A stretch of 64,000 nucleotides of DNA from Camelus ferus (lineage: Eukaryota), in assembly GCF_009834535.1 (NCBI RefSeq), contig NC_045696.1:65536001-65600000 (forward strand). The letters run 5' to 3'. The notes below the pieces were generated by a model. That model worked only from the letters and a program-made list of their open reading frames with translations, ran no database searches and was not told where the DNA came from. Of this stretch, positions 25,140 to 45,433 are shown one piece after another (the first letter of the stretch is position 1; the number at the start of each line of letters is the position of its first letter). The position numbers were made by a program, and so were the translations under genes.

Positions 25140-27441
25140 GTAAGTGTGTCTAGAGATAGTCTCAACAATAACAAAAAGTGTTCTTAAGCTAAGTTGTCTA
25201 GATTCCCTTAGGGGTTGAAATGGTGGTGGGGGTGCTGCACTGCCACCTCAGAAGAAAATTCTGCCCAAGAGTCTGGACAATAAGGTAATACATATTTTTT
25301 GTAAGGACCATAAAGTATATCCTCTTTGAGTGCCCATGGGAAAAATTAAAATACTGGAGATAATATTAGGCTCAAGGCAGGCCAAGCCATGCCAACTGTA
25401 TTGGTGAGGAGAGTGAGGATTCTAACGATCATCACTGCTCCACTGAGCAAGGGATAAGAAGCCCCAAGTTTTTGGCAAGAGTGAAGTAACCAAAGGAAAG
25501 AATTTCTCAAATTTTTATACATAAGGAAAGCTAACAGCCCTATAACCTATTAGAATTTACATATGACTTTCACAACTCTCCAGTTAATTCTCACAATACC
25601 TTGTGAGGAAGGGGTTCTTTCTCATCCCCAATTTACAGTTAGGAAAATTAGTCTCTTATCATCTTAGAGGGACTTTGCCAAGATTTTCTCATAGTTACTC
25701 TGACCGAATTTTTCTTATGATGTCATTTTGCTAGTCTTCATATAACTACAAATTAAAATGGTCACAACATTAATCAAGGGCCTAGATAGAAAAAAAAATG
25801 AATATAACTGATTTTTGAGCAGTCTTTTTCCTTACCCCCTCATTGCTAATTATGTGCTCAGGGAGCTCTCTTGGACAAGCTTTTCATCTTCCATATAAAA
25901 TCTACTATTTGTTTCCAGCTTCTAAACTAATTTTCCTCTTCTGGGGACTGTTGTATCTGTTGGGGACAACCATCTCCAATGGGTGCTGCCATTTCTCCCA
26001 GACACTGAACTGCTTTCAGTAGATGCTTACAAGCTCTTTCTGGGTACCACCACCTTTCCTTGGTCCGTATCTGCTTCTTCTTGATATCCTCATGTCCACT
26101 CCTTACAGAACTTGTTTACCCTAGATTCTGTCATGTTCCAGTTACCTTTACGTGCTGTTATGTCTACCAAACCTCACAATTCCCAATAGGCCCTACTGCC
26201 AACATCACTAAGTATCACTGAGGTCCTAGAGATTTCACTCTGGAGTAGAGTTCTATAAATATTCATTTGATTATTTTTGTATTTATTCAGTTATCAGAAT
26301 AACAAATTATCAAAACACTGATTCCCTGGACCCTAAATGCCTTACAGAAATTTTAATAAAAATAATCATCTTAGATTAAACTTATACATAGTCTATGGGA
26401 GCCTTCTCTACTCTGACAATTAAAACCTTTTTGTTCAAACAGTCCTGACCTATTCTCTCTTCTCTTAGATGCTCTCTTAAAAGGTTCCTCAGCCTCCCAG
26501 GAAGATTTCTAAAAGGCTCATTTCCTTATGATTCAGGCATGAATTGATCTATAATGTAGCATTACTTTGAACAATTAATGAACTGCAAGAAAAGAGAATT
26601 CATTTGGCCTTGACTTGCAGAAAATTCTCTTTAGTGACTCATAATATTTTAAGATTACATTTCCTTTTCTCTACAGATCCAATTATACAACTTGGTTCTG
26701 CAGTGAATAAGATTTACATAATCCTAATACTGTAAACACTGTTGGGTTCTGTTTTTCACAGTTCCGTAAACAAAGTGTAGAATTCTCAAGCCTATAAACC
26801 ATGGAAATGTTAAAATAATGCTAAAATTCTTAGAAACTAAGAGATGGAAGAAGGGAAAAAGAGAGACAAGGAGTTTATATCTGAGAAAATTGCATCTTTT
26901 GCTTTTGGAATAAACTGCTACTGCTAAAAGCTAATGAACCAAGAAATGCAACTGCTGTGTTTCTTTCTTAAACTTATGGGTGGTGAAATAGGGAATACCA
27001 GATATCCACCAGAAAAATGTAAATCAAAGAAAAGTAAAAGAGATTCACTCTTGCAGTAAACCTTCAGTGAGCAGGTGGTGTGGGAGACTTTCTATTTCAT
27101 GCTCTGCCATAGAAAGAGAATATTTTGGGGATCAAGCTGTTGCATTTACTTGAGTTCACATGGACTTCACCTACCCTCGGCAATATACATGAAGTGCTGG
27201 TTGGAGAGTATCAGCCTATTGTAACACAGAATAGGGATCCCTGGTTTTCTCACTCTTACTCTATTCCAAGCAACAAAGACAAGTCACTCACCACCATGAG
27301 AGTCCTAAAGATCAGGGACACAAATCCTTATCTGACCTGACTTCTCTGCCACTACAGTCTTTTGCCTCCTTAAGCCATGCTGTAGTCCAAAGCCCAAAAC
27401 CAGGTCCATGAAGAAAGCTGTTGTAATTTATAAACACTAAG

Positions 27442-27524
27442 GTTTCTCAATTATTTATAAATATGCTATCATGAAACGGAGGATAAATCCCATGCTATCC
27501 ACAAAAGAAAACGTTGTATTTCAG
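27442..27524 (+). pseudogene. Candidate exon ending ...CYPQKKTLYF; 5' boundary uncertain
   Basis: Consensus CAG|gtaagt donor, then a 100-nt intron to the next exon in phase 2. Confidence 0.45.
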
Positions 27525-27624
27525 GTAAGTAGAAATACATCACACACGTGATGAGGAAACATGGAAACAGCACATATGAAGAAAGGATACTGCCTTGAGC
27601 CATTTTCTGGTAACCGCCTTTCAG

Positions 27625-27766
27625 TCCTGCATTGTCTGATCCCTTCTTATAAACTGCTTGTCACTTAGAAGAACGAGATGCACCAGATAAGCCTTTTAGA
27701 AGAGTCCTGAACATGCTAATGAAAACTGTTAAAAAAAAAAATCTTGTTCTCTTCTAAAATCATAAG
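27625..27766 (+). pseudogene. Exon PALSDPFL*TACHLEERDAPDKPFRRVLNMLMKTVKKKNLVLF*NHK (2-0)
   Basis: ccgcctttcag| acceptor, AAG|gtcaat donor, one frame with two TAA. Confidence 0.55.
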
Positions 27767-27915
27767 GTCAATGTTTGTTAACCAACTGGGAGCTGTAAAA
27801 GCTTATATCGTAACATCTAGGAAGTCCTTTAAAAACATTTATTGAAAGCAGAAATTATAAATACAATATTAAAAATGGTAAACTGTGTTGCCATAAAGGT
27901 TTTTTTTTCCCTAAG

Positions 27916-27992
27916 ATCACACAAAATGAGAGCGTAAAAAGAAGCTATGAATTCAATTGCCCATCAAACTCCTCTACCATCCTCTTTGGAAA
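27916..27992 (+). pseudogene. Candidate exon ITQNESVK.../...EAMNSIAHQTPLPSSLE (probable frameshift)
   Basis: ttttttttccctaag| acceptor, AAA|gtagga donor. Confidence 0.4.
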
Positions 27993-28545
27993 GTAGGAAT
28001 AGAGAGATATTGTTTCTATATCCAAATTACAATCCACATGTGATACTTACTAGGAAATAGGGCATTTTGTATACCATAGTCATAAATCTTTTTTTTTAAG
28101 TCTGTAACTGAATGTTATTTTTCCCTGTTGGAATAATTTTCAAAATTATCTGGACTTTCTAAAGTTTATAAAGCAGTGAACTGTTCTTTTCCTGTTTTTT
28201 TCATCCTGTGGAATAATTCTCCCAGCAGTTAGAAAGCATTTGGGTACACTGTTGATTTACAGTCTGCAAGGATTTTATATATATAGCCATAAACACTAAA
28301 CTTTGGATGGCCCATCTAGTGCATGATACTGATTCTAAGATAGCAACGAATTAAGTGAATTTCAAAACTGCAACTCACCAGAAGAGGCCCAGAGATTATA
28401 TCGATCCATATGTGTTTAAACTGCAGAGTCATTCAAGAAAATATTGCTATTATAGCTCCAAGCCTGGAAGTGATTCCTGATCATCTTTGACTTTTTCAAA
28501 AATAGAAAATTATTTGGATTTATTTTAAATGTCACTCCTCTGCAG

Positions 28546-28654
28546 GTGAAGAATCTATTCATTTCGGAGAGTGCAGGATGAAACAAACTGTGCTGGTGCC
28601 TACTGGCTACAGAAAGTTTGGTAGAATTGACTACATTCTTGTGAAACAGACTGA
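28546..28654 (+). pseudogene. Exon VKNLFISESAG*NKLCWCLLATESLVELTTFL*NRL (0-1)
   Basis: cactcctctgcag| acceptor, TGA|gtatct donor, two TGA stops. Confidence 0.55.
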
Positions 28655-29221
28655 GTATCTGCTGAATCACATGAAGGCAATGATCAAAAGAGAAGATTAT
28701 ACTTACTTAATCTTCAGGAGCAGTAAGGTGTGGTGGGAAGTTTCCTGGTCTAAGAGTCAGAATGCAGGATTTGAGTCCCAACTTCATCAATTACTAGCTC
28801 CGAGTCTTTCCGCGAGTTAGCCTCAGTCTCTGTGTCCACACTTGCACCAGCAAAGGTAGTACTACTAGCTCTCTGGTCTCTTCAGAAGTCTTTGCTTCCT
28901 CAGAAAGTCACTTTATTTCTCATCCTCAGTCTCCTCATCTGAAAAACAGCGCTAAAACTCCAGGCCCTGATAATGTCAGAAACTCCAAGAATACAATTGA
29001 GAACATGGATGTGAAAATCATTAAAAAACCAGAAGTATTTATTAATTTATATAGTTGCAAAATAATATATTAAAAAAAAACTATTGCCTCTATTTGCCTA
29101 AAATTTGTTTTTATTCTAACCAAGTATTAAGAATTTTGAGAGTTATGTTTATAAACTTAATTTGTTTGAATTGATTGGCTATTTCTAATTTCTTAATTCA
29201 CATGGACATGTTATCTCTTAG

Positions 29222-29364
29222 GAACAGATACGGAATTTTCCTTCTGGATGAGAACACGAATAGTTGAGCATTTGGACCAGTTATCCTCTCAGTCTGTATC
29301 AAAAGCCTGCAGCCTGGCTATTGAAATAAAGGGAAAGTAGCAAGATGCAATCATAGTCATCAGA
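29222..29364 (+). pseudogene. Exon TDTEFSFWMRTRIVEHLDQLSSQSVSKACSLAIEIKGK*QDAIIVIR (1-0)
   Basis: ttatctcttag| acceptor, AGA|gtcagc donor, 47 codons with one TAG. Confidence 0.6.
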
Positions 29365-29447
29365 GTCAGCACCTTTTCTTTTTCTTTTGGAGCACTGTCA
29401 CACCAGTGTCATTGGAGAAATGCAGTGGTATTTTTTTTTCTCGATAG

Positions 29448-29493
29448 GAAAGAAAGCTCATAGCCATTCTGAAGCAGCTTCATGCTTTCTTAC
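29448..29493 (+). pseudogene. Exon ERKLIAILKQLHAFL (0-1)
   Basis: T tract then ctcgatag| acceptor, TAC|gtgagt donor, open helix-like frame. Confidence 0.65.
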
Positions 29494-29599
29494 GTGAGTC
29501 TCTTCATTGTTCTGCCCTTCTGCCATTCTGTGTGGTTATAAATTTGGCATCACCTGAAAGAATTTCTATGATGAATATTCTTTGTAAAACATCTCTCCC

Positions 29600-29943
29600 G
29601 ACATTTTTTTTCTGCCATTCAAAAGCATTCCCTACAGTCTCTACTGCTACCCCAATCAAACTCAATTTCTCACTAGTCACTGTATATTACCCCTTACTTT
29701 CCTATTTCTGCTCATGCTCTTCCTTCACTTGGGATCCTATCACTCAGTGGTTGCACGGTCAAAGCTCTCCATCTTTCAAATTCCATATGAAATTCCAACC
29801 ACTGGATGAAGACTTCTCTGATGGCCTTGAAGGCTTGAATGTCTCCATCCTCTGGAATTCCATAGCCTTTTAGCCACATTTCAGAAGGTACTTACCACTT
29901 TTGCTTTTGTTGTTTATCTACCTCTCATGTCTCCCACCCCCTC
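29600..29943 (+). mobile_element. L2 3' fragment, interrupted by the NDUFS6 retrocopy (resumes about 30498-30590)
   Basis: ...ttatctacctctcatgtctcccacccc on the left; cctccagggcaatacg...cttggcacatgatagtaagtgttaaatgaat on the right. Confidence 0.55.
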
Positions 29944-30497
29944 TTTTTTTTTTAAAGGGAACAACACACTTTGTTCGGCACCAGTAATGCAGTACGTGCA
30001 GCACTCGGGTCACCAATTCATTCCAACACTGAAATGCTCACCCCGGTAGGGATGGTGCTTTCTGAACTGGAATCCACGATAGCAGCACATTCCAGTCTTT
30101 TGTTTCTTTGTCAAGTTTATGTAAAATTCGGGCGGCCAAGTACCACCCCCCACCCCCCCACCGCCGTTACATACTGTCACTCGACTTTTGACTTAGCTCA
30201 CAGGCTGCTCTGCTATCAGATTCACGGCGAAGTCTTCATTCACCTTTTTCTGACGACCTACAAATCGAACTTTCCTGTAGTCTTTATCGTCCTAAACCTG
30301 GCTGGTGGGCGTGACTTTCCCCTGGGCGGCCTAGTTCCGCAAGCCGAGACATTTCGCGCCAGACAGCAGGCTCCGCGCAGCCGCCGCGCCGCTCGGCCGC
30401 CGAAGGGTCACCGCTGCTGCCGCCACCTTGCGGGCTGACCCTTGACCTGGCGCGCCAACGCGCCAGCCCTGACGCATGCGCACGGCTCTCTCGTCGG
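29944..30497 (-). pseudogene. NDUFS6: Processed pseudogene of NDUFS6 (complex I 13-kDa zinc-binding subunit)
   Basis: Minus-strand 30426-30046 reads [87 protein letters not shown]...(frameshift)YINLTKKQKTGMCCYRGFQFRKHH; intronless; ATG>GTG; stops at 30333, 30294, 30195; 3' UTR with decayed poly-A signal AACAAA and a poly-A remnant (T run at about 29944-29953). Confidence 0.95.
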
Positions 30498-30540
30498 CCT
30501 CTGCATCCAAGTGCCTCCAGGGCAATACGTGGTCGTTACA
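30130..30540. promoter_or_regulatory. CpG island on the retrocopy with NRF1, DR1 and E2F-like motifs
   Basis: Many CpGs against a CpG-poor background; TGACCCTTGACCT 30436-30448, TGGCGCGCCA 30448-30457, ACGCATGCGCA 30472-30482. Confidence 0.65.
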
Positions 30541-31149
30541 GTGTTTCCAGGAGCCCTTGGCACATGATAGTAAGTGTTAAATGAATGGTATAGATTGTTA
30601 AATTTAAATGGTACTAATTATCTCCGTTTTCAGCAGGCTACTAGTAAAACTAAGGTCTCATTACATGAGTAACTGAATCTTATTAATTCTGAGTCTCCAG
30701 TACCTACTGGAAATTCAATTCCCTGCAGAAAGAGGCCTTTTCACCCCAGTATTTCTGAGAATCACCCAAGGAGTCTGCTCGTGTTTAGCTTAGGAACGTT
30801 TGTGATGTTCTGTAATGGTTATTCAGCGGATGGTACCTCGTGTTGCCATACTTAGTCTTTGAGGTCAAAGGCCAGGTGTGGTTCATCTCTGCAGTTCTTA
30901 CATTACCTGGTACATTACCAAGTACATAATTGTGGATCAGTAAACATTGGTAAGTCTAAAGTATATGAACTGCAGAGGACAAATTCAATGGAATTTCAGC
31001 ATTTGCCTTCCAAATGCTGTATCACAGTTGTGCAAACAGTCCAGTAGCATTAAACAGAAGTAGAGTACAAAGGCTAAGAGCTCCAGAATCCTAGCCCAGG
31101 GCCTCACTAGATGTATGGCTGTATCTACACCTCAATAATCTTGCTTCTC

Positions 31150-32120
31150 AAGGAGACACAGCTCTGGGTATGTCTACAGTCACCCTGAGACAACAGTGGT
31201 TTTGGTAAGACTCTCTTACTCTCTCCCTGACTGTCCCCAGTTGTTCATTTCCACCGATTGCCCACTGATTGCTCTGCTACTTTCAACAATGCCCTGGTAC
31301 TTTATTTTTACTCTACCTACTAATCCATTCAAATTGTAGATCCTTTAAAGGAATAGTTTCTGAGGTCAGTGCTTGGTATTTGTTCTGATCCCAAAAGGAC
31401 TCCTCTCAGCTGCCTCATTCATGGTTCTCTTCTGCAAACCAGTCAATCTACTAGTCAATAGATTGTATCTTCATTAAATCCACATATCTCCCCCCAGGAG
31501 CTGTAGGCAGGCACAATGGCAAGCTTCTCTTTGAGTGAAAACCCCACAATAGGAGCTGAGCCCCTGGTAGGGGAAGTGAGGGTTCAGCCAGTAGTCTGAA
31601 ATCATCTCTTCTTGTGACTCCTCTGGCATCTAACCTCTGCCTCACAAGCCAGGGCAAGGACAGTTATGGCCCCCATATTCTCAGCAAATCGCATCCAAGG
31701 CAGAGTCCCCTTTTCACAAGTAGGGACTGAATAGGAAATTAAAACCCTCACCTCTCAGCCAGACATGCCCAGGACTTAGCTTCAGCAGTATCAAGGCAGA
31801 AGTCCTGAAGTCCTTCTCCTTCTAGTAAGAAAGGTCTCTTATTGGGAGCTGAGGGGAGAGAGAGTCCTGTGTTCTTGGCTATAGCATTCTGAAGTGAATT
31901 CTCCACCTCACTGAGCTGGGAGGATTTAGAGAGGGAGTTCAAACACTACAGATTCTGGCCTTTCCCAATTCTTAAAGATTTCCTTGAATCGATATTTTTT
32001 TCATTGGCTTCTTGCTCTTGGGATCATTTACAGAAGCTATAAATGGTTGCTTTTTATAATTTTCACTGTTTCTCTGGGAAGCAGGTCAAAAGAGTTCCTC
32101 ACACTGACATGCCAGGAGTC
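31150..32120 (-). mobile_element. Old L1M 5'-region fragment
   Basis: Ends ttcactgtttctctgggaagcaggtc...cctcacactgacatgccaggagtc, resembling an antisense old L1 5' end. Confidence 0.45.
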
Positions 32121-32597
32121 AGTGGGCTAAACATTTATTCGTAATAAGAAAATTATGGAAAACTGTGCCAAGATACTATTATTAATCAAGCAGATTAGCA
32201 AAATGTAAGTGTGTTTCAACACACTCTGTTGGTGACACTGTGAAGAAACAGGCCCTCCTATACCATTCAGGTTGGGTATAAATTTGTATGCTCCCTAGAG
32301 AGGGTAGTCCTGAAAAACAAGTTACAAAAGCACTTACCCTTTGACCTGGCAGTTCTACTTTTGGTCTTTATTCTACAGGTATATCTGCATGCATAGCATT
32401 ACTGCTAAGAACAAAATATTGGAAATAATTGAATATGAGGGGGCTAAATAAAGAATGAATATGTGATTTATGTCATATGAAAAGAGCTCCATGATATATT
32501 CAATGGGGAACAAAGGTGTATATTAACCTCTATGTGAGAAATTGATGGGAAAGACAAATATATATTTATTTGAATTTTTATAAAGAACTTCTGGAAA

Positions 32598-32810
32598 AGG
32601 GTATGAGATTAAGAGATAAAAACTACTATGTATAAAATAAAAAAAGCAACAAAGATATATTGTACAGCACAAGGAAATATAGCCATTATTTTCTAATAAT
32701 ATTATATGAAGTATATATAATCAGTCAAAATATTGAATCACTATGTTGTACACCTGAAACTAATATAATATTGTAAATGCACTGTAATTCAATTAAAAAT
32801 TTTTAAAAAG
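32598..32810 (+). mobile_element. 5'-truncated L1 3' end within an older L1ME-like fragment (about 32190-32970)
   Basis: gatatattgtacagcacaaggaaatatagcc...gaatcactatgttgtacacctgaaactaatataatattgtaaa then an A-rich tail. Confidence 0.8.
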
Positions 32811-33487
32811 AAACTCAGAAGATATCAAAGAAATCAATAAAACTGGAGATTAGTACAAAACATGGTAGATATGGCAGGAGTGGGAATGAGGTTTCCACAG
32901 TGTTCTTTCGATATTGTTTTGCACTTTGAACCATGCAAATGTATTGCCTGTATATAAAAAAAATTAAATTTACAAAAGAATGAAAACAGAATTTCTAGTA
33001 GGATAAAGTTACTAGGCAGGAAGTGGCCTTTGTTATCATCATATTCAAGTCCTAGAATTTACAGATAAAGAAATAAAGGTTAAGATAGGAAAAGGGACTG
33101 CACCAGGATCCATGCCAAGTTATTGGTAGAATTGGGACTTAAATGTTCCAATTCTAAATCAGGCCTCTGCCCACTTCTGCATATTTGCTTTTGATATTAG
33201 AGAATCGTGTGTTTAACTTCTACTGTGTATAATGGAAAGGAAGTATCATACTGAAAAATAATATACTCTGAGCCCTTTCTGCCCTGCAGTGCCCTGTGTC
33301 CATCTGGAGTGTGGGGCCTGCTTCATAGCAGCTTCCACATCGCCCCTAATGAAGGCATGACAGCTCTATATGCCGGGAGCCCTTTATTAAAAATTCACAA
33401 AAGCAGGCTCCACATTCTGCAGCATTTTCTTCTTGCAAACCACTTTATTGTTTTTCTCTTTTTGACCATCTTAGGAATACTCTTTAG

Positions 33488-33644
33488 GCATCTTTCCACC
33501 TTGATGATAGCATGAGCACCCTAACATCACTCATATCCTCGGTAATGCTGCTAAACCACCTGTTCTGGAGATGGCAGAGAGAGTGTCTAAGTTACTGGTT
33601 ACTAAATCAGAGATGAAAGCTGTAGAGAACAAGGCTTCACTGAG
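33488..33644 (+). pseudogene. Exon IFPP***HEHPNITHILGNAAKPPVLEMAERVSKLLVTKSEMKAVENKASL (1-2), with Kozak ATG at 33571
   Basis: actctttag| acceptor in phase with exon 29448; GAG|gtaaat donor; in-frame TGA TGA TAG upstream of gagATGG. Confidence 0.65.
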
Positions 33645-36600
33645 GTAAATTTAAGCACTTTCTTACAGATTTTTTTTAATACATTGGCCCTGGCTGCTTC
33701 TCAAACTGTACAAAGTGGGCATAATTTTTCTCTGTATAGTCTCTCCTTATTAATCTTCTCCCCCACCCATTCTCAGTCCCTGAGGTTCCAAGACTGTCGA
33801 CTGCACCAGCTTCAGGATTAGGCATGTGGTCCAAAAGTAGCCAGAGCACCCCATCCTCCTGACCAGGGTGATTAAATCAGGGCAGGCACATAACTCAGCC
33901 TGAGCCAGTGAGAACACAAGGAATTTTGTTGGCTATATCCAAAAAGACCTCACCTTTCTCTTGAGGTTGCTAAACTGGAATAACTTAAGTCTGTAGATTC
34001 CAGTAGTCAACTTTACTCTCACACCAAAAAGTCCAAGTGCAAACCAACACAGAGAAATCAGAATCTGAAAGACTCTGGATGGCAGTGTTTAACCCTGAAC
34101 CCATTTGTGTCCGAAAATGTGTCCCTTGAATTTCCCAGTTCTATGAAAAGGGAAAAATAAAATTCCTTTTTTTTGGTGGTTATTTAGGCTAGATTTAAAA
34201 AAAAATTTTTTTATCGACTTATAGTTGATTTACAATGTTGTGTTAGTTTCTGGTGTACAGCAAAGTGATTCAGTTATATATATTTATATATGTGTCTGTG
34301 TGTATATATATATTCTTTTTCATATTCTGTTCCATTATGGTTCATTACAGGATATTGAATATAGTTCTCTATGTTTTACAGTAGTACTTTGTTATTTATT
34401 TTATATATAGTAATTTGTATCTGCTAGCCCTAAACTCCTAATTTGTCCCTTCCCCACTCCTCTTTCCCCTTTGGTAACCATAAGTTTGTTTTTAGACTAG
34501 ATCTGAGTATCTATCTCATGCAGATCCAAAATCCAAACAGAAAATTTTTCTTATTTAATTATAAGATATAGATACATTTTAGAAGTTTTAATGTTCTCCA
34601 AAGTGTAAGTGTATTATTTATTCTTTCCAATAAAACCTCGATTGAAATGGAAAGATTATAATTTAGGAAGCAGATATTCAACATATGTTCCTTACTTTAA
34701 TCTCAAATTCTCTGGAGCACTTAGAAATTTTTCAGTAGAAGAACAATATCCTGGAGAAAAAAAAACATAAACACTAGGAATAATAATTTTTATAATCCCT
34801 ATTACAAGTTATAAAGCATCATCATATGCTAACAATTTCATTCCCCTACCCCTGTAACAAGGCTTTTAGGTGCACAGCGTGTTAAAAATCTCATTTTGAA
34901 AGTGAGCAAAGCCGAATTTCAAAAACCATAACTTATCCAAAATCACACAGCTAAGGAAGGGAGCAGGAGTTGAACACAAGTATACCAATTTATTCTTCAT
35001 GTGTCCATTACTCCACACTGACTCACATAAGGATAAACAAAATCTGACTGGTCAGTTGAAGGATTTAATCTCAATTGCAACTGTTCCTTTTCACTTGGGT
35101 TCTAGAAATCATATGGATATCCTCTTTTGCATTTGCAAATCAGTAAATCTTCTGGTCTGTTTTTCCTATACCAGCGCTGCTCAAAAAAATCCGTGTTCAC
35201 ATTATACAGAGGTATTGATTTTGCTCACCCAAGAAATATTTTTAAAGTGTTATTTATGAAGAATATAGGGGAAAACTTCTTTTGTTCGTAAGAGGAAAGT
35301 AAACATTTCTTACAGAGCTGCCTGGCGCTGCTTTAAGATAATTTAATTTGACTCAAAAACCATTTACAGAGTTGATGCATTTGTAAACCCTGTGAAATGG
35401 TGTTATTTTTTATGACAGATAAAGATGAGGAAAATGATCAAGAGAAATAAGACACAGTCCCTGTGCTAGGGAGACGGTGGGTGGGGAGGAGGATACGGTG
35501 TGTTTTTTGGGGTTTGGAATTGCAAACCACAAAATTCCTTCCATTTTACGTAAAAAAAGAATCTGCTTTGCACGTTAGGTGACTCAAAATACATCCAAGG
35601 TAGAGACAGAGTCAGAATTGGATGTGTGCAACCAGGAGCAAAGTCCAGGGACTGCTTCTGCAGGCGACTCTGTTACCACTGATGAGGGTGTGTACTGCAG
35701 CTCTCCTGGACGCTGGATGCCAGAGCCTCGAACACTGCTGTCCTCAAAGGCCAGACAACTTGGCCACCGGGCTTGCCTGAAAATGGCTCCCATGGGGCAA
35801 ATGCTTCCTTAGGTTGCTCTTTTGTGAGAATGTTTCTGCTTGGGAGGGTCTCGGTCACATGCTCTGCTGCTGGGAAGACCAGAAGGACAAATTTCTGGAT
35901 TCTAAATTGAGAATAGGGACACCCATTTAATTGAGGAAAATTCCTCAAACATAGAAAGGATATATAAAGGCTCCTGACATTTTCTAAGCATATGTATGTC
36001 TACAAGATGGATTAGAGGAAACACAAAGGTCAGTTTTTAGCAGGAAATCTTACATCCTGTGATGGAAGATGTGGCAGAGAGACTTGGAGGTTTTGCTGAG
36101 AAAGATTGTTCTTGAAACACGTTAGGCAGCGAAGGTGTACTCTGAGCACCCTAATTATTCTAGTCCCTTTCCAAAAGGCTTCCACATCCCTTTGCTTTCT
36201 ACTCCTTGTATACCTCAGATAAAGTAACTGTGCACTAAAGATGATTTGAGAAGCTTTCAAGGTGTTTTTATAGAGATAATAATACTAAAATGTAAATTGT
36301 CCCCCTCATGGTCTCAAACATCAAAGTCATAGATGTCAAACTCTAAACTGAATCCAACTATACTGAAATAGTTTGGCAAATGGATAAAACAAAACTCCAA
36401 AATGTTAAGGTTAACATCTAAAAATCTAATGATGAGTCAAGCAAAGCGGTTCACATCACCTTTTAGAAGTGATCCCCAAAGTGCTGAATTATGATAGCCC
36501 TGAGCTAGTAAAGCTGTTCTAAAGAAATCTTTCATCCCTGCTTTAAACAGATGACAAGCAGAGCATTAGAGGAAGAGGCCAGACTCTGCTAAAGGAGAGG

Positions 36601-39600
36601 CAGGTTTCATGATTATAACATCCTCCAGGGCATTGTGTACGACACCGGGTCACAGGACCCCATCCCCACGCAGGCCTCGCTCACACTCCAGCCTGTGCCT
36701 TCCCGACGAAATGAGTGACTTCCAGGTGGACTGTTCACCCAGCCGGACACTAGTGCATTTAAACTTTTTATTTGGGGTTTAAAAGAGCAGTAGGAAAATG
36801 GACCATACTCTCGCTTTCTCAATGTCAAGCATACATCATTTACATGGTAATTTTATTATTTCTGGAATTCATTCAGTTAAAAAGAACATCTGTTATTTAA
36901 AATGGAATACCATGCAATGATTATAGTTATGTCTGGGGAGAAATGTAGAATGCTAAATATCTTTGATATATTTTTGAATGCACAGAAAAAAATCTGCAAG
37001 GATATATACTAAGTTTGGATTTTGTGGGGTGTTTTTTACTTGGCTTTTACTCCTTCTTTATACCTTCCTGGATGTTCCAAATCATCTATAAAACATATAT
37101 ATTACATTAATAATTAGAAAAGTAATAGTGAAGGTTTCATTTAGGATGTCAAAGTCATGATTACTTGAGTGCAATATGAAATATATGATAATTTATTGGT
37201 GTTTTGAATATACGTTATCCCCAGAAAATTATTTTCTAAATAACAAATTTTAATAAACTCTTAGGGAAGTTGAGCTTTCTAAACTGGCCTGCTTCCTTAC
37301 TGAGACGGAAATAGCAAGCTTAAGGAGCACTAGGTAACATTTTCTCGAGCATCCTGGACACTCACAAGTACTAAGAAGGGGCTGACATTTTTTTACTGCA
37401 ACACTTAGTGTCTCCAGACGCCTCCATTTCTGAGCGCTTTCATTGACATACTGTCCTCTGGTCTGCACTTCTGTGAGGCTGGGTAGCTATGACCATCGCC
37501 CCCTCTGAAGCCAGCACCACTTTCTCCTGCCCTCACTCTCTCCTCACTTCTCCTCATAGAAGAGCGAGTGGAAAGAGCATGCATTATGGTACCACACAGC
37601 TTGCATTTGAATTCAAATTCTAGCATTTACTCATGCTCATGATCTGACCATTTAATCATCTGTAAAGTGGACATGCGGATGAATAATAGTAACACAGCCA
37701 CCCAAATAGTATCCAGTAGTAACCAACAGTAGTAATACCCAGCAAACATTTTAACTTGTTGGAAAATTGAATTGGTCGGGACACATGAAAGCAGCTTTCA
37801 AATTATAAAGCAATGTGCAAAAGATTTTATTCTTTTCAATTCTAAATTTGTTCCTTTTAATAATAAGCCATGGCTTGAAAAATCAGATAAACGTATTAAA
37901 TATAATTAAGAGAAAACTAAAATCTAGCAAATAAGTTTTAAGTGTTCCCAGGGGTCTGAATGGAACTAAAGATACCAAGTTTCTTCCAGTCTAAAACATA
38001 CATATTGACACACAGTTTCAATATTTCTAAAATTGGGGGTGGGCCTTAAACTGATAGTGTCTTATAATTGGCATTTGGGACGTGGATCATCACCTGCCTA
38101 GGGGCAGGCATCAAAAGCACTACCCTCAACCCTTGCAAAATGGGTGTCTGCAGCCTGGAAGAAAGTCCCAAAGTGAAAAAAAAAAAAAAAAAAGAAACAT
38201 AAATACAAAATGGAAACAGACTCATAGACATAGAATACAAACTTGTGGTTGCCAAGGGGAAGGGGAGTGGGAAGGGACAGACTGGGATTTCAAAATGTAG
38301 AATAGATAAGCAAGATTATACTGTATAGCACAGGGAAATATATACGAGATCTTGTGGTAGCTCACAGAGAAAAAAATGTGACAATGAACATATATATGTT
38401 CATGTATAACTAAAAAATTATGCTCTACACTGGAATTTGACACAACATTGTAAAATGAATATAAATCAATAAAAAATGTTAAAAAAAAAAAAAAAGACAC
38501 GAACTTGTTTACAAAACAGACACAGATACACAGACATAGAAAACAAACTTGTGGTTACCAGGATGTGAAGTGGTTGGGAAGGGATAAATTGGGAGTTCAA
38601 GATTTGCAGATACTAACTACTATATATGAAATAGATAAACAGCAAGTCTATACTATATAGCACAGGGAACTATATTCAGTATCTTGTAGTGACCTGTAAT
38701 GAAAAAGAATATGAAAACAAATATATGTATGAATATGTGACTGAACTATTATGCTGTACACCAGAAATTGACACAACGTTGTAAACTGACTATACTTCAA
38801 TAAAGAAAAAAAAGAATGAAGAAAAAAAGAAAGTCCCAAAGTGAAAGGTGAAGCACTCTTTGAAGAAATGTTGCAACATCAACTTTCCTAGTGGCACAGG
38901 GGATGATATTGGAAGAAATGACATGGATGTGGCAGTGAGTCCAAACACATCCAAAAGAGTCAGACTCTGTATGTGGAGAAGCTTCAGGAAAATTTAACCC
39001 ATTTTTTTATGTTTTCAATTTTTAGGTATGTATGAAGACAGATATAATTACATAAACTGTCACAAATGACTTAAAAAGCTCTCTCAATAAAAAAATAAGT
39101 GCAAAGTGGCATAAAAACATGTAGTATTATTTTTATTGACAACGTTTTCTCTGTTACTAAACAATAATGGTGCATCTTACAATCAGTGGTGTCTTGGATA
39201 CAGTGAAATAGGGTAAATGTCCAGTTGTTCTTTTTTTTTTTTTTTTAATCCCGTTACCCCAAATACTTCATTCCGCAGGCTCTCTTAGGAATAAGAACAT
39301 TGTCTTATAAAATTGTGGTACTGTTATTACATCACAGAAAATGGACAATACTTCCATAATGTCATCTAATATCCAACCTATATTCAACCTCCTGCAAATT
39401 GTCCAAAAATGTCTTTTATGGTTTTTCTTAAACCAGCAGCCAGTCAAGTTTTATGCATTACATTTGACTAAAATTTTTATTATTGTTAGCCCTGTGTACC
39501 AACTACTCAGTAGAGACAAATTTACTTTGTTTTAAACCTGCCCCCCTTTATCTTTTAGGGCATAAGTGTTCATTTTGTTTCATCCTGCTTTTATCTTATG

Positions 39601-40124
39601 GAGCTTTTTTAAGGTAGGAAGTATTTAGCAACCTTACCAAGAGATTTGCCCACTGGAATCCATATTAATTGTTTTACTGAGTTTCTTAATCTTTCAGAGG
39701 TAGGAATAAATAGAAGGTTATTTCTGAACTTCACTGTTGCATTGCAGCAGGACTAAGTTGCTGTAATGAATTTATCAAATTGCTCTCTGGGGCAATACAT
39801 ATGTACACCAGAAATTCCAAATATCTGGAGAAGCATTGCCTTTTGAAAGTTCAATGTCATGTTCCCTGAGTGTTTTGGGTTTAGCTGAATATGAATAACT
39901 TCCTTATTTTGACAAAATATTCCAATCTTCTGGTTGCCAAATTAAAAATAGTTCCTTTCATATTTCCTTTAGAAGGGAGTTAGTGCTTTGAATATGATGT
40001 TCACATCTTGGAAAGAATAGCATTTCTTGATGAATGAAAATATGTCTTTTCAACAAAGGACTTGCTGTTCCATTCTTTTATAAAACGGTTTAGTGCTGGT
40101 GTGGAAAAAAATGTACAGACTTGA
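33571..40124 (+). CDS. Possible spliced 122-aa ORF (6 exons: 33571-33644, 35175-35211, 35579-35687, 36551-36599, 37265-37333, 40094-40124)
   Basis: 369 nt, open across all five junctions; one GC donor (36600); translation unproven. Confidence 0.3.
33760..34190 (+). mobile_element. ERVL LTR33/LTR16-like fragment
   Basis: ggcatgtggtcc...gattaaatcagggcaggcacataactcagcctgagccagtgag...aataaaattcc. Confidence 0.5.
34200..34492 (-). mobile_element. 5'-truncated cetartiodactyl L1 3' end
   Basis: tatagttgatttacaatgttgtgttagtttctggtgtacagcaaagtgattcag...ggtaaccataagtttg; approximate TSD ttagRctagat. Confidence 0.85.
35175..35211 (+). pseudogene. Exon AAQKNPCSHYTE (2-0)
   Basis: tgtttttcctataccag| acceptor, GAG|gtattg donor, open. 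Confidence 0.65.
35579..35687 (+). pseudogene. Exon VTQNTSKVETESELDVCNQEQSPGTASAGDSVTTDE (0-1)
   Basis: ctttgcacgttag| acceptor, AGG|gtgtgt donor, open. Confidence 0.65.
36551..36599 (+). pseudogene. Exon DKQSIRGRGQTLLKE (1-2)
   Basis: ccctgctttaaacag| acceptor, GAG|gcaggt GC donor, open and in phase on both sides. Confidence 0.6.
37265..37333 (+). pseudogene. Exon EVELSKLACFLTETEIASLRST (2-2)
   Basis: aactcttag| acceptor, TAG|gtaaca donor, open. Confidence 0.65.
38050..39215. mobile_element. Tigger6-like Tc1/mariner DNA transposon split by an L1 insertion
   Basis: gaagaaatgttgcaacatc...gtggcacaggggatgatattg and terminal aataatggtgcatcttacaatcagtggtgtcttggatacagtgaaataggg. Confidence 0.6.
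38179..38826 (+). mobile_element. Two tandem L1 3'-UTR fragments (about 38193-38494 and 38495-38826) within one TSD
   Basis: 20-bp TSD AAGAAAGTCCCAAAGTGAAA at 38159-38178 and 38827-38846; each fragment ends in poly-A. Confidence 0.9.
39250..39470 (-). mobile_element. L1MC4/5-type 3' UTR fragment
   Basis: ccccaaatacttca...aataagaacattgtctt...tcatctaatatccaacctatattcaa. Confidence 0.6.
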
Positions 40125-40189
40125 AGAAAGTGTATGGACTAAAGAACAAAACAAATTGGATGTTCAAGATAGCAGGATGGGAACACTGC
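40094..40189 (+). pseudogene. Exon AGVEKNVQT(frameshift)EESVWTKEQNKLDVQDSRMGTL (2-1), donor mutated
   Basis: cggtttag| acceptor; 1-nt frameshift giving TGA at 40122-40124; donor reads C|ATATTT, possibly from C|GTATTT by CpG decay. Confidence 0.5.
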
Positions 40190-40909
40190 ATATTTCTTAT
40201 TATGCTTTTCATTTATGTTGAAGCAAAAAAAAGGGATTTGGGGGAAAAACTGGTTACTAAAAGTCACATAATACCCAATATAGTGTACAATGGAGGTTAT
40301 CAAAGTTACCAAGTTATTTCTTTTTGATTAAAGAGTTTTCTATCAAGTATGCCAGAATATTTAATTGAAACTGGCAACCCTACTGCTGAAAGTGTGTTGT
40401 ATAGTCCTGTTTTAAGTTGTTCAGAATGGATATTTTGTCCACTTCTAGCTCTTAGTAGGGTTTTCCATAAGTAAAACATCTAGACAGTGGAATTCTGTAC
40501 AGGTAGAGTTTTTCTGCTTATAAAAATTTCTTATTTGTTATTCAGTTGTTAGTAAATAATAAGCTAACCGAGAAGTGTGCAATGTCTAATGTGTGTCTAG
40601 TCACTGGTTTAGCATAATGCCTCTATTCAGTTATTATATAGATTTACTATGTTAACCAGTTTCACAATGGATTAGTCTTAATTTCCAGTCAACTGATAAC
40701 GTTAGTGAATAAGTGGACAGACTCTATCAACAAACATTCCCTCTTCTTCTGTTTCTACTATACTCCCAAAGTAATCATTTTTAAAAATGAAGCTATATAA
40801 TATTGGAATGGAAGTTTCCTTGATTATACTTCTATGCGCCATCATTACTGCCTCGGCACTAGGGCCTCAGTGGGCAAGTAAAGTCCCAAGGCCATTTCTA
40901 TTTTTTGAG

Positions 40910-40959
40910 GTTCCCAGTTGCAGAATAAAGAAATGCCAAAATATGGCTACAAAACTGAT
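40910..40959 (+). pseudogene. Exon SQLQNKEMPKYGYKTD (1-0)
   Basis: tttctattttttgag| acceptor, GAT|gtatgt donor, open. Confidence 0.6.
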
Positions 40960-41499
40960 GTATGTTAAAAGTTCACATTTAACATTTTCATTATGTTTAT
41001 GCTCTAGAGAATTCAGTCACTGTGTCTGTGACATTGTAGAGGTAATCTCAAAATTGTATTTTTGAGGCTCAACATTATGAGAGACCCTGGACTCTCCAGT
41101 CACTCTGCAACTTATGGTCTCATGTTAGGTCCCGCTGATCACGCATTCACTTTGTTAATTACATAGAGTTTTGATTCTCCTATCATCCCCAACTCCTATA
41201 AACTATTTTCAACTGGTTACTGTAGCTTTTTTTTTTTGTCATATTTGTATGTAAACATGTGTCATAGTACAGTACCAAATATTGATACCCACAGCAATAA
41301 AAAAAGATTGAAAAAAATTGATCAATATCTTGTTCCACATAACTTTCGTGAGGACAAATCCTTTTATATTTTTAGTATACCATTTCAGTTTCATGGAGGC
41401 TGTCCAAATTCACAGGAAAATATGTTTGCAAATCCCCAGAAATATTGTCATTTCTTTTTTTTTAATTACAGAGGCGATTTCTCTTACTTCCCAAGGTAT

Positions 41500-42170
41500 A
41501 GGTCATCATTCAATTTCCTCCTTTCACCCCGTCGCTGTTCATCAATAAATAACTGTATCTCCACTCGCTCTTATCATTTCTCTCCAGCCTCACAAGAAAG
41601 TTGATCTTATATATCCAGTCTAAACATAATCCTTCAAACTGTGCCCTAAATCGTATTTTTCTTCCTTAAAAATCTCACAATATCTTCTTTCTTTTCTGTT
41701 TCCTCAACAGCTGTCTCCACTGCTTCCCTTCTCTTCACACACACATACATATACATCTCTCTCCCATTATTAAAATTTAAATGTTTGGTTTAATTTCCAC
41801 GGTCTTCTAGGCATCCTCTCATCTTCCTGATTGCCTCTGTAACCAGCTTCTTTAAAAGTAGTCTACATTTCCTCCTTTCCATTCTGCCCCCCCCCCCACG
41901 GCTATGTTATTTCTTTCCCTATCTCTCCAGGAAAATTCTTCTCACAAGAGTGATCAGTTACTCCTTTTTTCCTAATACAATGAACACATTTCAGCCCTGA
42001 TCTTACTTTATTTCTCTGAAATATATGGAAGACTGAACCAAACTTTTCTTGAAATTGTCTCCCGGAAGACTTCCATGACACAATTCACTCCTATTTTTCC
42101 ATCTACATCTGCAGCCACCTCTTAACCTCCTGCACAAATTCATTTTCTTTCAGCTACCCTTTAAAAGAGG
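41500..42170 (+). mobile_element. L2 fragment
   Basis: Pyrimidine-rich L2 motifs such as cttctcacaagagtgatcag...cagccctgatcttac...gacttccatgacacaattcactcc. Confidence 0.55.
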
Positions 42171-43336
42171 CACCTAAAGAGACGTGACAATTAAATGTAA
42201 TGCGGGACCCCTGGATGAGATCTCGGGACAGAAATAGGACATTAGGTAAATACTAAAGAAGCATGAATATATTACACATGTATCATTTGATCTCTACAGT
42301 CATGTAAGTATTTTTATTTTTTTACTTTACAGAGTTGTAGTAGGCTAAGAGATACTATATTAATTTGGAAGATCATATACATACTAACTAGTAGATCCTA
42401 AAATTGATCCCACATCTTTAGATACAGAGTCCAGTATTCTTTCCGATACTTAATTCTACAGTGTGTTCTTAAAGACATAATATTAAAAAGAGTGTAATAC
42501 ACTTTTTCTTCAACAAAGTTATTCAGAGTAAGTATATCAGGTTATAAATATGTAGGGTTTCAGTTGTATTTGCTTTGTTGAGATATGCTTTCATTTTAAG
42601 AAAAAAAGTACCCAAAGTTTTGATTCTCTAAGAAGTAGAAACCACTATTAAAAGATAACTATCATGAAAAGAAAGAGAGAGAGAGAGATAGAAAGAAGAG
42701 AGAGAGGGAGGAAAAGGAAAGGGAAGGAAAAGAAACATCAGATATTTCATTTTCAAGAAAAAAATGGTGCATTAGATGTGTAAAACCATCCATCTTTTAA
42801 ATCTCCAACTCTTATTAGCAAACCCTTTATAAAATTTTTTTCATATAAATATGTGTGATTTTCTGGAGAAAAGCGTGTAAGGTTTTCATCATAAGTGTTG
42901 TAGTATCATCAGGGAAGTCTGTCTCCTAAAATAAGAAACTGTAAGAGACAGAAAATAATGAAGCAAAATGTTCTAAGAGTAAAGAAGAAGCAACTGAATA
43001 AAGCAGAGGGAATCTTGGAGGGGCTTAAGAAACTCAAGGAATTTGTGACGGGTTGACTTTCAACAGGAAAGGAAAAAGAGGAGAGGCTTTGTACACTAAG
43101 AGAAAAGTAGGAGCAACAACACGGAAGGAAAATGTACATTTGAGAAAACGCGGAAGTTGCAACGTAACTAGAACTTAGACTGGGTTTCGGGGTTCAGGTG
43201 GGTTGGAGCGCTTCATGAAGGGAAGTAAGTTTATTTTCTTGTTTTGAAAGCAGTTTATGTTAGCTTTGGTGAGAATAGTAACACCAGAGTCTCTGACCTA
43301 CAAAAGATTGTGTGTTTTCCCTTCTTTCTTTCACAG

Positions 43337-43408
43337 AGGAGAAACGTGAGCCCTAAACCTAGCCTCCAGCCCTGCTCTTTCTCCCTAGATCTTATATATA
43401 AAGGACAG
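43337..43408 (+). pseudogene. Exon RRNVSPKPSLQPCSFSLDLIYKGQ (phase 0 start; 3' end uncertain)
   Basis: Very strong acceptor ttttcccttctttctttcacag|; only the phase-0 frame is open; possible donors after 43408, 43440 or 43498. Confidence 0.5.
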
Positions 43409-43780
43409 GTCTACGTTGGATTCCGTTACGGAAAGCCTCTGTAACTGCTTGTTACGTTGACTGTGCGTGCTTCCTGCCTCACGCTCATGAACGATGTGGT
43501 AATTTCTCCCACCAAAGAAATCAAATATTTTCCCCTAAGTATATAGACAGAGAAGACCTCAGAGCATATTTGCCTTTTGGATAGTGTGGATTCTATTATA
43601 ACTCTTTGAAACAAGCTGAGTTAACATCCCAACCTAGTCCATGCTTATTTCTTTTTGAGTGCTTTTTTCTCATTCATCCACCTAAAACATTTCCAAGTCA
43701 TACAATTCAAGAAAACTGGGTTACTTGAAGTCACGTGTGTCGAGAGTAAATTTATGTCATCTTTTTCATTACTATCTCAG

Positions 43781-43817
43781 TCCAGCACTGAAATCTTTAA
43801 GGAAAGAATTGTCTGTG
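43781..43817 (+). pseudogene. Exon SSTEIFKERIVC (or PALKSLRKELSV)
   Basis: ctttttcattactatctcag| acceptor, GTG|gtatgg donor. Confidence 0.5.
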
Positions 43818-44339
43818 GTATGGAAATTACTTTAGAAACTTAAGGTTCATTGGTTAGATGAGCTCTAAAGTGCTTTTCTAAATATGCTATTATTTTATGT
43901 TCTCAAATTCTTTTTCTCTAGAGGAAAGTAAGTTTTTATATACTTTGGTGATTTTTAAATTGCTTTAATATGTTTGAAATTGTCCTAGATTATTATGGTG
44001 TCATGGCACCTTACATAGCGATTAATTAAATGCTAAAATCAGCCCAGAAGGTGAAAATGCCGTATTCCAAATTACCCTATATGTGTGTATATGTATGTGT
44101 AAATATTCATATGTAAAATATACTATGGTAATTTAAAATAGAGCTTATCAAAGATGCAGAGACAGGCAAATCCATGAGTTACAGAATGAAAAACATATGG
44201 AGTTGAAAATTAGTAATCTAAAATGCCATTTGATGAAACCTCGTTATATATTTAATTACAGGACCCTGCAGTGATGGTAGTGTATTAGTAAGGGGAAGTG
44301 TGCTAAGAAATTACTCTCTTGGTATTAAAAATTACTGTG

Positions 44340-44800
44340 ATTATGTTGGTTAGTTATCAGTTTGCTCACCCTTCTGTATTCATTTCATACTCTGAGATAC
44401 TGGGGCTCAGACTGCACCAACTCTATTTACCAGATTCCCATGCTGGTTGGCTGACTGTGATCTCCACCAGGAGGCAGCACTCCGAGAGCAATCCTGGAAG
44501 GTATGAGAAGGGGACAAAGAATTTCCTTTCAGCCTAGGTCCCTACCCCTGTAGCTCCTATAGCAATGATACTTGGCCAAGCCTGCAGCTTTTTTTTTTTT
44601 TTTTTGGTTCCCCAGACCAGCCACACTGTGTCCCTTATCATCACTTTTTCCTCTTTATCCCGGCTTCTTCCTGTACCTATTATCCTAGGTCACCAGTGTT
44701 TCCTCTTTGCTCTTTTAGCTCAACTACTGTGTAATGACATCCCAAATCAAATCTAGTTCATTTTCAATGACTAATGGGGTTTCATTTTCCCATTAAGGTT
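44340..44800 (+). mobile_element. Old ERVL LTR (LTR16/LTR33-like)
   Basis: tgttggttagttatcagtttg...ctatttaccagattcccatgctggttggctg; boundaries approximate. Confidence 0.45.
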
Positions 44801-45433
44801 CCAGTTGATGCTCTTAATTTTCAGTTGAATGCCAGTCTGTAAATGCTTGACCATCTCCTACAATGACCATAGATGGGTATGATGAGAAGCCAGGGGTGAG
44901 GGTTGGGGGTAGGAAAAGCTGGCGACAGTGTCCTGCCCTTTGGAGCCAGAAAATAGTATAGTAACAAACATGTGCCAAATCCATTGAGCAAAAGATATAT
45001 TCTCTGAAGTTACTCAGAGCAAACCAAAATTCTCTACACATCAATCACTCAGGAAAGAGAAGTAAAAGGAGAGCAATTTTGTAAGAGAGCTTTCTAGTAG
45101 AAAGTGGGCCAAAAAGTGGGGGTAGGGGTTGAGGGACAATTTTTCTTCACTTCAAGAGTTTCAACATTATTTCATGCTTTTCAGCTTCAAAGTGGCTTTG
45201 TTCATAAAAGCTTTATGAGTAATTTAGGTATTTTCTGCAAAGAGGTACAGAATATACAATGAGTTTCTGAGTTCAGGGTTTTTCTCCATTAACAACTAAT
45301 GTCTGATTCCTCTGGAAAGGCACCCGGGACATGTTGTCTTTCAATTATCACATTCTCATTCAGGGAAGAATTAAATGAAAACTGAATACCATCATTTTAA
45401 CGTAACCTTGGGGATAAAGGTAATGGTATTTTA

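Follow-up and report, generated by a model that had tools for sequence, protein, structure and literature searches.

A disabled NDUFS6 retrocopy with a retained CpG island beside exon-like segments that may be the remains of a decaying gene in Camelus ferus

Okamura and Nakai (2008, PMC2386082) described retrocopies that bring with them the core promoter of their parent. Such copies make up about 3% of robustly expressed retrocopies according to Carelli et al. (2016, PMC4772013), a study whose available sections also report that retrocopy promoters are enriched for NRF1 motifs. The locus analysed here, part of a 64,000-nucleotide stretch of Camelus ferus DNA (the window), resembles these cases in that a copy of NDUFS6 has brought to a new site 5’ sequence of its parent, including an NRF1-like motif, and with it a CpG island. 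As far as the available text of PMC2386082 and PMC4772013 goes, however, the retrocopies described there were recognised by CAGE or by their expression, and the promoter serves the retrocopy itself, whereas the camel copy is dead, its proposed use is antisense, to other exons, and it is known from sequence.

Three further systems invite comparison. As in RB1 transcript 2B (PPP1R26P1 island, PMC4537222), a pseudogene CpG-island promoter and first exon are proposed to serve downstream exons of another gene, possibly with a truncated product. In the available account RB1 is a live, known host, its spliced transcript was obtained by RT-PCR, and the island, which is imprinted, arose after the pseudogene had inserted; here, in contrast, the island was inherited, the host is apparently broken, and no spliced transcript was seen among the joints listed. 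IRGM (Bekpen et al. 2009, PMC2644816) offers the similar model of a pseudogene revived by a retroelement-derived transcription start, although its death and return were established, in the available parts of that report, by cross-species comparison and expression, whereas here both are proposed from sequence. Finally, like unitary pseudogenes (PMC2864566), the camel segments would be single-copy, intron-containing remains with lesions, with no paralogue among the best candidates scored. Membership of that class, as the available text defines it, needs a functional orthologue elsewhere, and pieces of 44-76 aa found no match.

The minus-strand element at 29944..30500 (Table 1) is a dead copy of NDUFS6 mRNA, inserted long ago. 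Four separate parental exons (G000:C3:1052427-1058925) match contiguous parts of it without introns, 349 of 450 aligned bases (78%) are identical to the parent, and one open piece resembles NDUFS6 chains in the PDB (E 2e-13). The reading frame is disabled, with a changed start codon, stops and indels. Its poly(A) remnant is a T10 run at 29944-29953 (+), and inspection, by eye only, showed no evident target-site duplication. The mRNA copy carried part of the parental 5’ promoter region with it and has lost its reading frame. In exons 2-4 its distance to the parent is about 0.11 at position 2 and about 0.38 at position 3; the copy is therefore old, and its insertion need not postdate the loss of the exon-bearing gene. 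The preliminary description had taken the island for an NDUFS6 copy with a transcript running antisense to it, and the orientation of the retrocopy agrees. Our literature search found no paper on the NDUFS6 retrocopy, or on NDUFS6P1.

Table 1. Positions of the retrocopy, its island and the exon-like segments in the window
Feature	Position	Strand	Details
NDUFS6 processed pseudogene (retrocopy)	29944..30500	-	5’ leader, four joined exons, 3’ part, poly(A) remnant
CpG island from retrocopy	30130..30550		CpG o/e 0.98, GC 0.62; apparently long shielded from methylation
17-nt block identical to parental 5’ leader	30471..30487		presumed NRF1-like palindromic motif at 30472-30481; from alignment
Putative first exon	30488..30569	+	weak-context ATG 30564; GTAAGT donor at 30570, score 2.2
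Optional exon of the preliminary description	30895..30949	+	AG 30893-30894; GTAAGT at 30950, donor score 4.4
Segment 1	33488..33644	+	acceptor options 33475, 33488, 33511; triple stop 33502-33510; ATG 33571; donor 33645
Segment 2 (37 nt)	35175..35211	+	acceptor 3.5, donor 0.5
Segment 3 (109 nt)	35579..35687	+	acceptor 2.2, donor 3.5; bears most codon periodicity
Segment 4 (49 nt)	36551..36599	+	GC donor 36600 required; acceptor A 36549 reads G in other animals
Segment 5 (69 nt)	37265..37333	+	acceptor -0.3, donor 1.0
Retroelement insertion	38159..38846	+	two tandem repeat ends; families D1, D3, D4; in proposed intron 5
Segment 6	40094..40124	+	stop 40122-40124; very weak acceptor -6.1

CpG o/e in the island is 0.98, against 0.20 for the window. 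The copy retains 23 of 48 parental CpGs, and TpG or CpA occupies 9 of the 48 compared with 6 of 52 positions for the GpC control, which is no excess (Fisher p 0.40). The 17-nt block, found in the parent about 60 nt upstream of the NDUFS6 start codon, includes an NRF1-like palindrome, and the pattern has a single match in 264 kb. Because CpGs are kept without a TpG/CpA excess and the motif is intact, the data indirectly support the view that the island escaped methylation decay and would behave as unmethylated promoter-type DNA. A second partial copy of the NDUFS6 5’ region, on C26 in unrelated AT-rich DNA, has likewise kept the motif, with 15 of 30 parental CpGs retained, so that retention follows the sequence itself and no selected downstream gene is needed. 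The NRF1-like site and the CpG-rich DNA would by themselves hold the island unmethylated, and the island may be an orphan promoter from which either strand is transcribed at a low level. Orphan CpG islands borne by retrocopies are a known kind of element, and the present one is a clean example of the process, a piece of parental promoter remaining apparently unmethylated while 20% of non-CpG sites came to differ between retrocopy and parent. No matching paper was found in a literature search combining NRF1 motif, retrocopy and promoter.

Downstream of the motif, the putative first exon looks like part of an old dispersed repeat. Positions 30500-30600 align with a repeat-like sequence around 48060 at a score of 55.5, where the reversed query reached at most 34.5, and with a minus-strand one around 5000 at 39.5. 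A repeat origin for 30895-30949 was not supported (49 against a control of 45). The splice donors previously proposed here are present (GT at 30570 and 30950, both +), the optional exon beginning at 30895 and not at 30894.

The exon-like segments between 33.5 and 40.1 kb occupy the strand opposite to CCDC50, beyond the 3’ end of that gene. The preliminary description had proposed an open six-exon frame, and 33571-33644, 35175-35211, 35579-35687, 36551-36599, 37265-37333 and 40094-40124 do join into 122 codons plus stop with the start and end given there, provided that the GC donor at 36600 is used; the GT donor nearby at 36604 shortens the frame to 93 codons, and skipping exon 4 ends it at 89. 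The start described there, ATG 33571 in the context gagATGg, is indeed found, as are the three consecutive in-frame stops before it. It stands 20 codons past the triple stop, in a frame that is open across those 20 codons as well. Phase-0 reading from 33488 turns the triple stop into the sense codons GAT GAT AGC, one base off the downstream frame, and with the alternative acceptor at 33511 the stops would fall in the intron. Joining 30569 to 33511 gives an in-frame 144-codon frame from ATG 30564. The acceptors of exon 6 (-6.1) and exon 5 (-0.3) compare with 4.1-7.2 for five CCDC50 acceptors under the same crude model, and the first AATAAA/ATTAAA signals past segment 6 stand at 40327 and 40924.

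Chains of this kind are easily found. Of 34 intergenic control spans, 30 held an open six-exon chain of at least 122 aa with a splice sum of at least 14.3, the value of the chain first described. In a larger set of 152 spans, open six-exon chains 122-140 aa long were present in 126, and 30 reached the splice-plus-codon score of the chain first described, while its codon-usage score was no higher than that of composition-matched shuffles (P 0.28). Codon-position periodicity gives a different picture: the chi2 of 28.1 for the 122-codon chain was reached by 0 of 3000 shuffles and by 1 of 126 control chains, in comparisons that rest on crude, hand-built splice and codon models. Removal of exon 3 lowers it to 15.2, and exons 4 and 5 add nothing. 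The best chain of an unguided search, which shares exons 1-4 with the earlier one, was matched in 5 of 152 spans (GC-matched, 1 of 120), although about 19 such spans fit the window on both strands and the chain statistics are therefore modest after selection. The caution voiced originally, that the open run might be chance, thus applies to its openness but sits less well with its periodicity.

The segments could be ordinary intergenic DNA, in which AG and GT/GC sites were joined by chance and the retrocopy island alone is real. The ease with which control spans give open and well-scoring chains (30 of 34 by splice score alone) fits this explanation, as do the lack of a homologue in any search and the omission from the chain of higher-scoring exon-like candidates at 35419-35476 and 36629-36725. 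Suspected internal repeats between exons were also not significant, the pairs 1/5, 2/6 and 3/38935 giving no BLASTP alignment and a score of 45, where an unrelated tile reached 47. We nevertheless consider it unlikely, given how rarely the periodicity and the best chain were matched in control chains and GC-matched spans. Because just one of 126 control chains matched the periodicity, the six exons probably descend from a real protein-coding gene. The parent gene had no match in any search, and the term ‘fossil’ therefore rests on composition statistics.

Those searches covered several kinds of record. Among protein records, exon 1 (78-2000 aa) gave 4 candidates, exon 3 (85-2000 aa) 11, and a further single-exon search of longer proteins, up to 2000 aa, 2, none with E<=10; since the queries were short, low-complexity single-exon pieces of 44-76 aa and the targets at most 2000 aa long, there is room for a distant relative. 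HMMER with an exon piece returned 0 hits among 1.84 billion representatives, the best ESM Atlas scores (0.85 and 0.82) are leads only, and Pfam, applied to 6 and to 81 stop-free stretches, gave a best E of 0.009, under the cut-off and at chance level. A metagenome match (L032, 39% identity) proved to be unrelated low-complexity sequence. Rfam had 0 matches over the 64 kb. In the animal’s own genome, the best candidates scored contained only self matches and one hit at E 2. The available text of PMC3056782 names only POP2 in the human and mouse CCDC50-FGF12 interval, that of PMC4074677 and PMC9226698 gave no useful placement or description of LINCR-0002, that of PMC7496026 contributed nothing further, and the matches listed for camel gene loss held nothing for this locus.

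Expression was assessed on assembled contigs from 4 of 24 listed runs, contigs that show neither starts nor strand. Among 15 joints listed of 159, from the four runs, there was no GT-AG joint. The four runs have no depth at 31153-31819, to which no meaning attaches because some records are dropped. Two contigs read unspliced through donor 30569/30570, contigs cross 35175-35211 (X1 record 4, X2 record 11) and 35579-35687 unspliced, and coverage over the proposed introns is close to the genome-wide background. The transcript formerly proposed to link island and exons is thus not borne out by these contigs. Such a transcript may still exist in another form: the island might drive a spliced, non-coding or poorly translated plus-strand RNA that uses some of the exons, probably in an unsampled tissue such as testis, with the frame incidental. 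The 500 nt downstream of the NRF1-like site hold two GTAAGT donors, where the average is 0.3 per kb; this is compatible with such an RNA, and a precedent exists in the retrocopy CpG island of RB1 intron 2, whose transcript is spliced to host exons in the available sections of PMC4537222. Translation would be damped by upstream ATGs at 33512 and 33545, which have a purine at -3, are out of frame and overlap the start at 33571 in all 6 leader versions tried. The contigs and joints just described speak against it, however, as does a first donor within repeat-like DNA, and poly(A)-like hexamers 561 and 985 nt downstream on the plus strand, with none in the first kb on the minus strand, do not favour plus as the productive direction. 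We regard this RNA as improbable.

The same runs bear directly on the frame. All three that cover position 36549 (X1, X2 and X3, from two studies) show A>G at full depth, as read from RNA; the exon-4 acceptor reads GG instead of AG in those runs, which breaks the 122-codon frame, and there is no in-frame AG within 20 nt. Frame preservation in relatives, raised in the preliminary description as a check, thus appears to fail once, at this splice site. No substitution inside the six exons occurs among the rows listed, which is uninformative with about 0.6 expected.

A selected small protein, expressed by the retrocopy promoter from ATG 33571 or, as 144 aa, from ATG 30564 via 33511, would account for the open frame with coding-like periodicity, for the promoter-like island and for the longer frame that the 30569-33511 joint yields; the absence of substitutions just mentioned adds nothing. 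Yet it would have to survive loss of the 36549 acceptor in 3/3 covering runs, dependence on the GC donor and two upstream ATGs in every leader, and it has neither a protein record in the size ranges searched with exons 1 and 3 nor a spliced RNA among the joints listed. We consider such a protein very unlikely, and the ‘reborn mini-gene’ of 122 aa put forward before finds little to sustain it. Under neutral decay with an assumed indel rate, the 122-codon block would be lesion-free with probability 0.32 at 2%, 0.06 at 5% and 0.003 at 10% divergence, so that an intact block would point to selection if the gene had died at 10% divergence or more. It is likewise highly doubtful that the retrocopy gave a backwards NRF1/CpG promoter and the ATG 30564 exon to an uncatalogued mammalian gene, that a frame broken by a one-base loss near 33510 was rescued in camelids via the acceptor at 33511 or the internal ATG at 33571, and that the resulting 122-144-aa product is polymorphic among camels at acceptor 36549.

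The best reading, to which we give somewhat better than even credence, is a dead retrocopy island with kept promoter features beside a decaying gene without a catalogued relative. The segments at 33.5-40.1 kb would be the decaying remains of a multi-exon coding gene with no such relative. The triple stop is most simply read, on parsimony only, as ordinary codons put out of frame by a one-base loss near 33510, and ATG 33571 would then be an old internal methionine rather than a new start. Two adjacent lesions, one near 33510 and the other at 40122, would bound the 122-codon run, which would be the gap between them and not kept by selection, with splice sites inside it apparently decaying already, at GC donor 36600 and at acceptor 36549, gone in other animals.

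If orthologues confirm it, the coding remnant beside CCDC50 would be an uncatalogued lost gene. Were a small protein made after all, it would join the few documented genes revived via a promoter of retro origin, and a naturally occurring loss-of-function allele would be at hand for testing it. The retroelement in proposed intron 5 is flanked by a 20-nt target-site duplication, at 38159 and 38827.

The preliminary description of this locus proposed a reborn mini-gene, in which a retrocopy promoter drives an intact block of six exons. The sequence features it listed are real: the exon positions hold, the exons join into 122 codons and a stop, and both the three consecutive stops and the ATG at 33571 are present. 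The open frame requires a GC donor at 36600, as a GT donor four bases further ends it at 93 codons. Scored with hand-built matrices, the acceptors of exons 5 and 6 come out at -0.3 and -6.1, whereas five CCDC50 acceptors fall at 4.1-7.2.

Sequence features at the locus (window = G000:C1:65536001-65600000; G000, the same camel genome; C1 and C26, its contigs)
Feature	Position	Strand	Remarks
Weaker CpG island	12000-12600		o/e about 0.6
TATA-like motifs	near 12430-12450	+	in weaker island
Good-context ATG	near 12527	+	in weaker island
Donor-like site	~12011	-	in weaker island
Exon-like segment	27443-27524		upstream of NDUFS6 island; one open frame
Exon-like segment	28546-28727		same; strong splice sites, 60 open codons, other frames 6 and 5 stops
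Exon-like segment	29222-29292		same; one open frame
Pyrimidine-rich acceptor	~29553	-	
Exon-like segment	29958-30045	+	reversed retrocopy poly(A) remnant is a strong acceptor; open in two frames
CpG island formed by minus-strand NDUFS6 retrocopy	30130-30550	-	CpG o/e 0.98 (window 0.20)
Donor-like site	~30297	-	at retrocopy exon 1-2 junction
Putative first exon	30488-30569	+	donor 30570; stretch resembles dispersed repeats elsewhere in window
Triple stop	33502-33510	+	
Exon 1	33571-33644	+	begins at ATG
Exon 2	35175-35211	+	
Exon 3	35579-35687	+	
Exon 4	36551-36599	+	
Exon 5	37265-37333	+	
Exon 6	40094-40124	+	
Two tandem retroelement ends	38159-38846		clean 20-nt target-site duplication; flanks coding-like on both sides, weak, non-significant likeness to exon 3
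Purine-rich stretch	48276-48620		coding-looking, stops in all frames
GC-rich stretch (L012)	~64400-64850 (window-equivalent)	both	just past right end, near CCDC50 3' end; open coding-like frames
Second partial NDUFS6 5' copy (L026, L074)	G000:C26:7156180-7156420		internal duplication; AT-rich, repeat-rich DNA

The earlier suggestion that the open run may be chance stands for openness by itself, which does not exceed intergenic controls, and is weakened for codon position, where a signal is present. When 6.7-kb intergenic spans were searched for six-exon stop-free chains from a Kozak-type ATG, 30 of 34 gave a splice sum at or above the 14.3 of the described chain; with a codon-usage term added, some chain arose in 126 of 152 spans and the described score of 33.1 was reached in 30 of 152 (22 of 120 GC-matched). 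An unguided search of the true span chose exons 1-4 of the description and then two other exons, a best chain (58.6) equalled by 5/152 spans and 1/120 GC-matched spans. Base-by-codon-position chi2 was 28.1 for the described chain and 39.2 for CCDC50; the former value was reached by none of 3000 composition-matched shuffles and by one of 126 control chains. It drops to 15.2 minus exon 3, and exons 4 and 5 contribute nothing; codon usage does not exceed that of the shuffles (P 0.28), and about 19 spans in the window could have been picked. Weighing the codon-position signal and the unguided chain against exon-3 dependence, codon usage and span choice, we find moderate evidence that the six exons descend from a coding gene.

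The triple stop itself may reflect decay. Read from 33488 in phase 0, its bases are the sense codons GAT GAT AGC, one base off the downstream frame, and the three candidate upstream exons (ends 30569, 29292 and 28727) all finish in phase 0. It is improbable that three neighbouring codons each turned nonsense next to 142 open codons, and a single one-base loss near 33510 would account for the triple stop; alternatively, an acceptor at 33511 leaves it inside an intron. The 20 codons preceding ATG 33571 are already open in the same frame, and under either reading this ATG looks like an internal methionine codon. Under neutral decay with an assumed indel rate, the 122-codon block and its ten splice sites would stay undamaged with probability 0.75, 0.32, 0.06 and 0.003 at 0.5, 2, 5 and 10% divergence, so that a fairly recent loss requires no selection and an old one would.

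Translation of the proposed product would meet upstream starts. In all six leader versions tried, the ATGs at 33512 and 33545, with purine at -3, open an out-of-frame reading overlapping ATG 33571; 33512 loses its -3 purine with acceptor 33511 or through junction bases, and 33545 remains. Only with splicing from 30569 to 33511 does the first ATG, in weak context at 30564, fall in frame, for a reading of 144 codons.

Single-exon queries found no relative in two very large protein collections, the ESM Atlas, Pfam, a metagenome collection or the camel's own genome. Since the queries were of 44-76 aa and low complexity (S/T/E/K/Q make up 49% of the 122 codons) and three word-index searches covered proteins of up to 2000 aa, a diverged orthologue could have escaped. 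No camelid record of the 122-aa product appeared, where exact-word sharing with exons 1 and 3 was expected. Overall, the segments are probably the remains of a coding gene for which we found no relative. Homologue searches with the three exon-like segments upstream of the island were also empty.

The island is a processed NDUFS6 copy, as established by the four parent exons on contig C3, which match it end to end, 349 of 450 identical bases, an open piece matching NDUFS6 in the PDB, and loss of start codon and reading frame. The copy is old, differing from its parent at 72 of 352 non-CpG sites. It retains 23 of 48 parental CpGs; 9/48 became TpG/CpA against 6/52 in the GpC control, no excess (p 0.40), and a 17-nt block with a motif we take to be NRF1-like is identical to the parent. 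Such a composition fits DNA that has long escaped methylation and is in a promoter-like state. CpG and motif retention is no argument for a mini-gene, because the second copy on C26 retains both (15/30 parental CpGs).

Four RNA contig sets (X1, X2, X3 and X5, of 24 runs; tissues unclear) were compared with 25150-45140. They covered 0.23-0.43 of the stretch against a contig size/genome size of 0.40-0.47, which is background, and none of the 15 joints listed out of 159, all of those 15 in repeats, was GT-AG. X1 record 2 and X5 record 26 cross the 30569 donor unspliced, as X1 record 4 and X2 record 11 cross exons 2 and 3. These contigs speak weakly against island-to-exon splicing, given the unclear tissues and that DNA or nascent RNA can yield unspliced contigs. 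An A>G change at 36549, found at full depth in runs X1, X2 and X3 from two studies (X5 lacks coverage there), removes the invariant A from the acceptor of exon 4, and this depth in three runs makes a genomic difference more likely than RNA editing. The nearest in-frame AG options lie at least 21 bases away in purine-rich context, and skipping exon 4 ends the frame at 89 codons. Separately, 474 of the 662 nt of X2 record 10 lie on 29076-29549, the other 188 not being among the matches listed. The minus-strand sites at ~30297 and ~29553 would give an exon of ~190 nt (30297-30487) ahead of the piece on 29076-29553, and the record may come from a spliced transcript that runs the same way as the retrocopy.

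Known systems offer three comparisons. The NDUFS6 island works like inherited-promoter retrocopies (PMC2386082, PMC4772013), a class that needs a demonstrated start site; from its sequence features, the island is probably an orphan promoter of this known kind. For the proposed pairing of island and exons, the parallel would be RB1 transcript 2B (PMC4537222). Rebirth would work like IRGM (PMC2644816), a kind of resurrection for which retention in close relatives is one defining test; the exon-4 acceptor reads GG in the three covering runs, which speaks against such retention for the six-exon block. We found no evidence for a protein reborn from island and six exons, and consider one very improbable. 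Our literature search returned no paper on this NDUFS6 retrocopy.

Exons of CCDC50 occupy the minus strand ~10-70 kb past the window's right end, and one of them matches Pfam CCDC50_N (E 4e-10); the six-exon block therefore sits beyond the 3' end of CCDC50, on the other strand. The interval holding the block presumably runs towards FGF12. In the part of the source available, the sole name given between CCDC50 and FGF12 is the primate retrogene POP2 (PMC3056782). The purine-rich stretch gave nothing above chance against Pfam. The weaker CpG island could be the old promoter of the decayed gene, or that of a minus-strand transcript.
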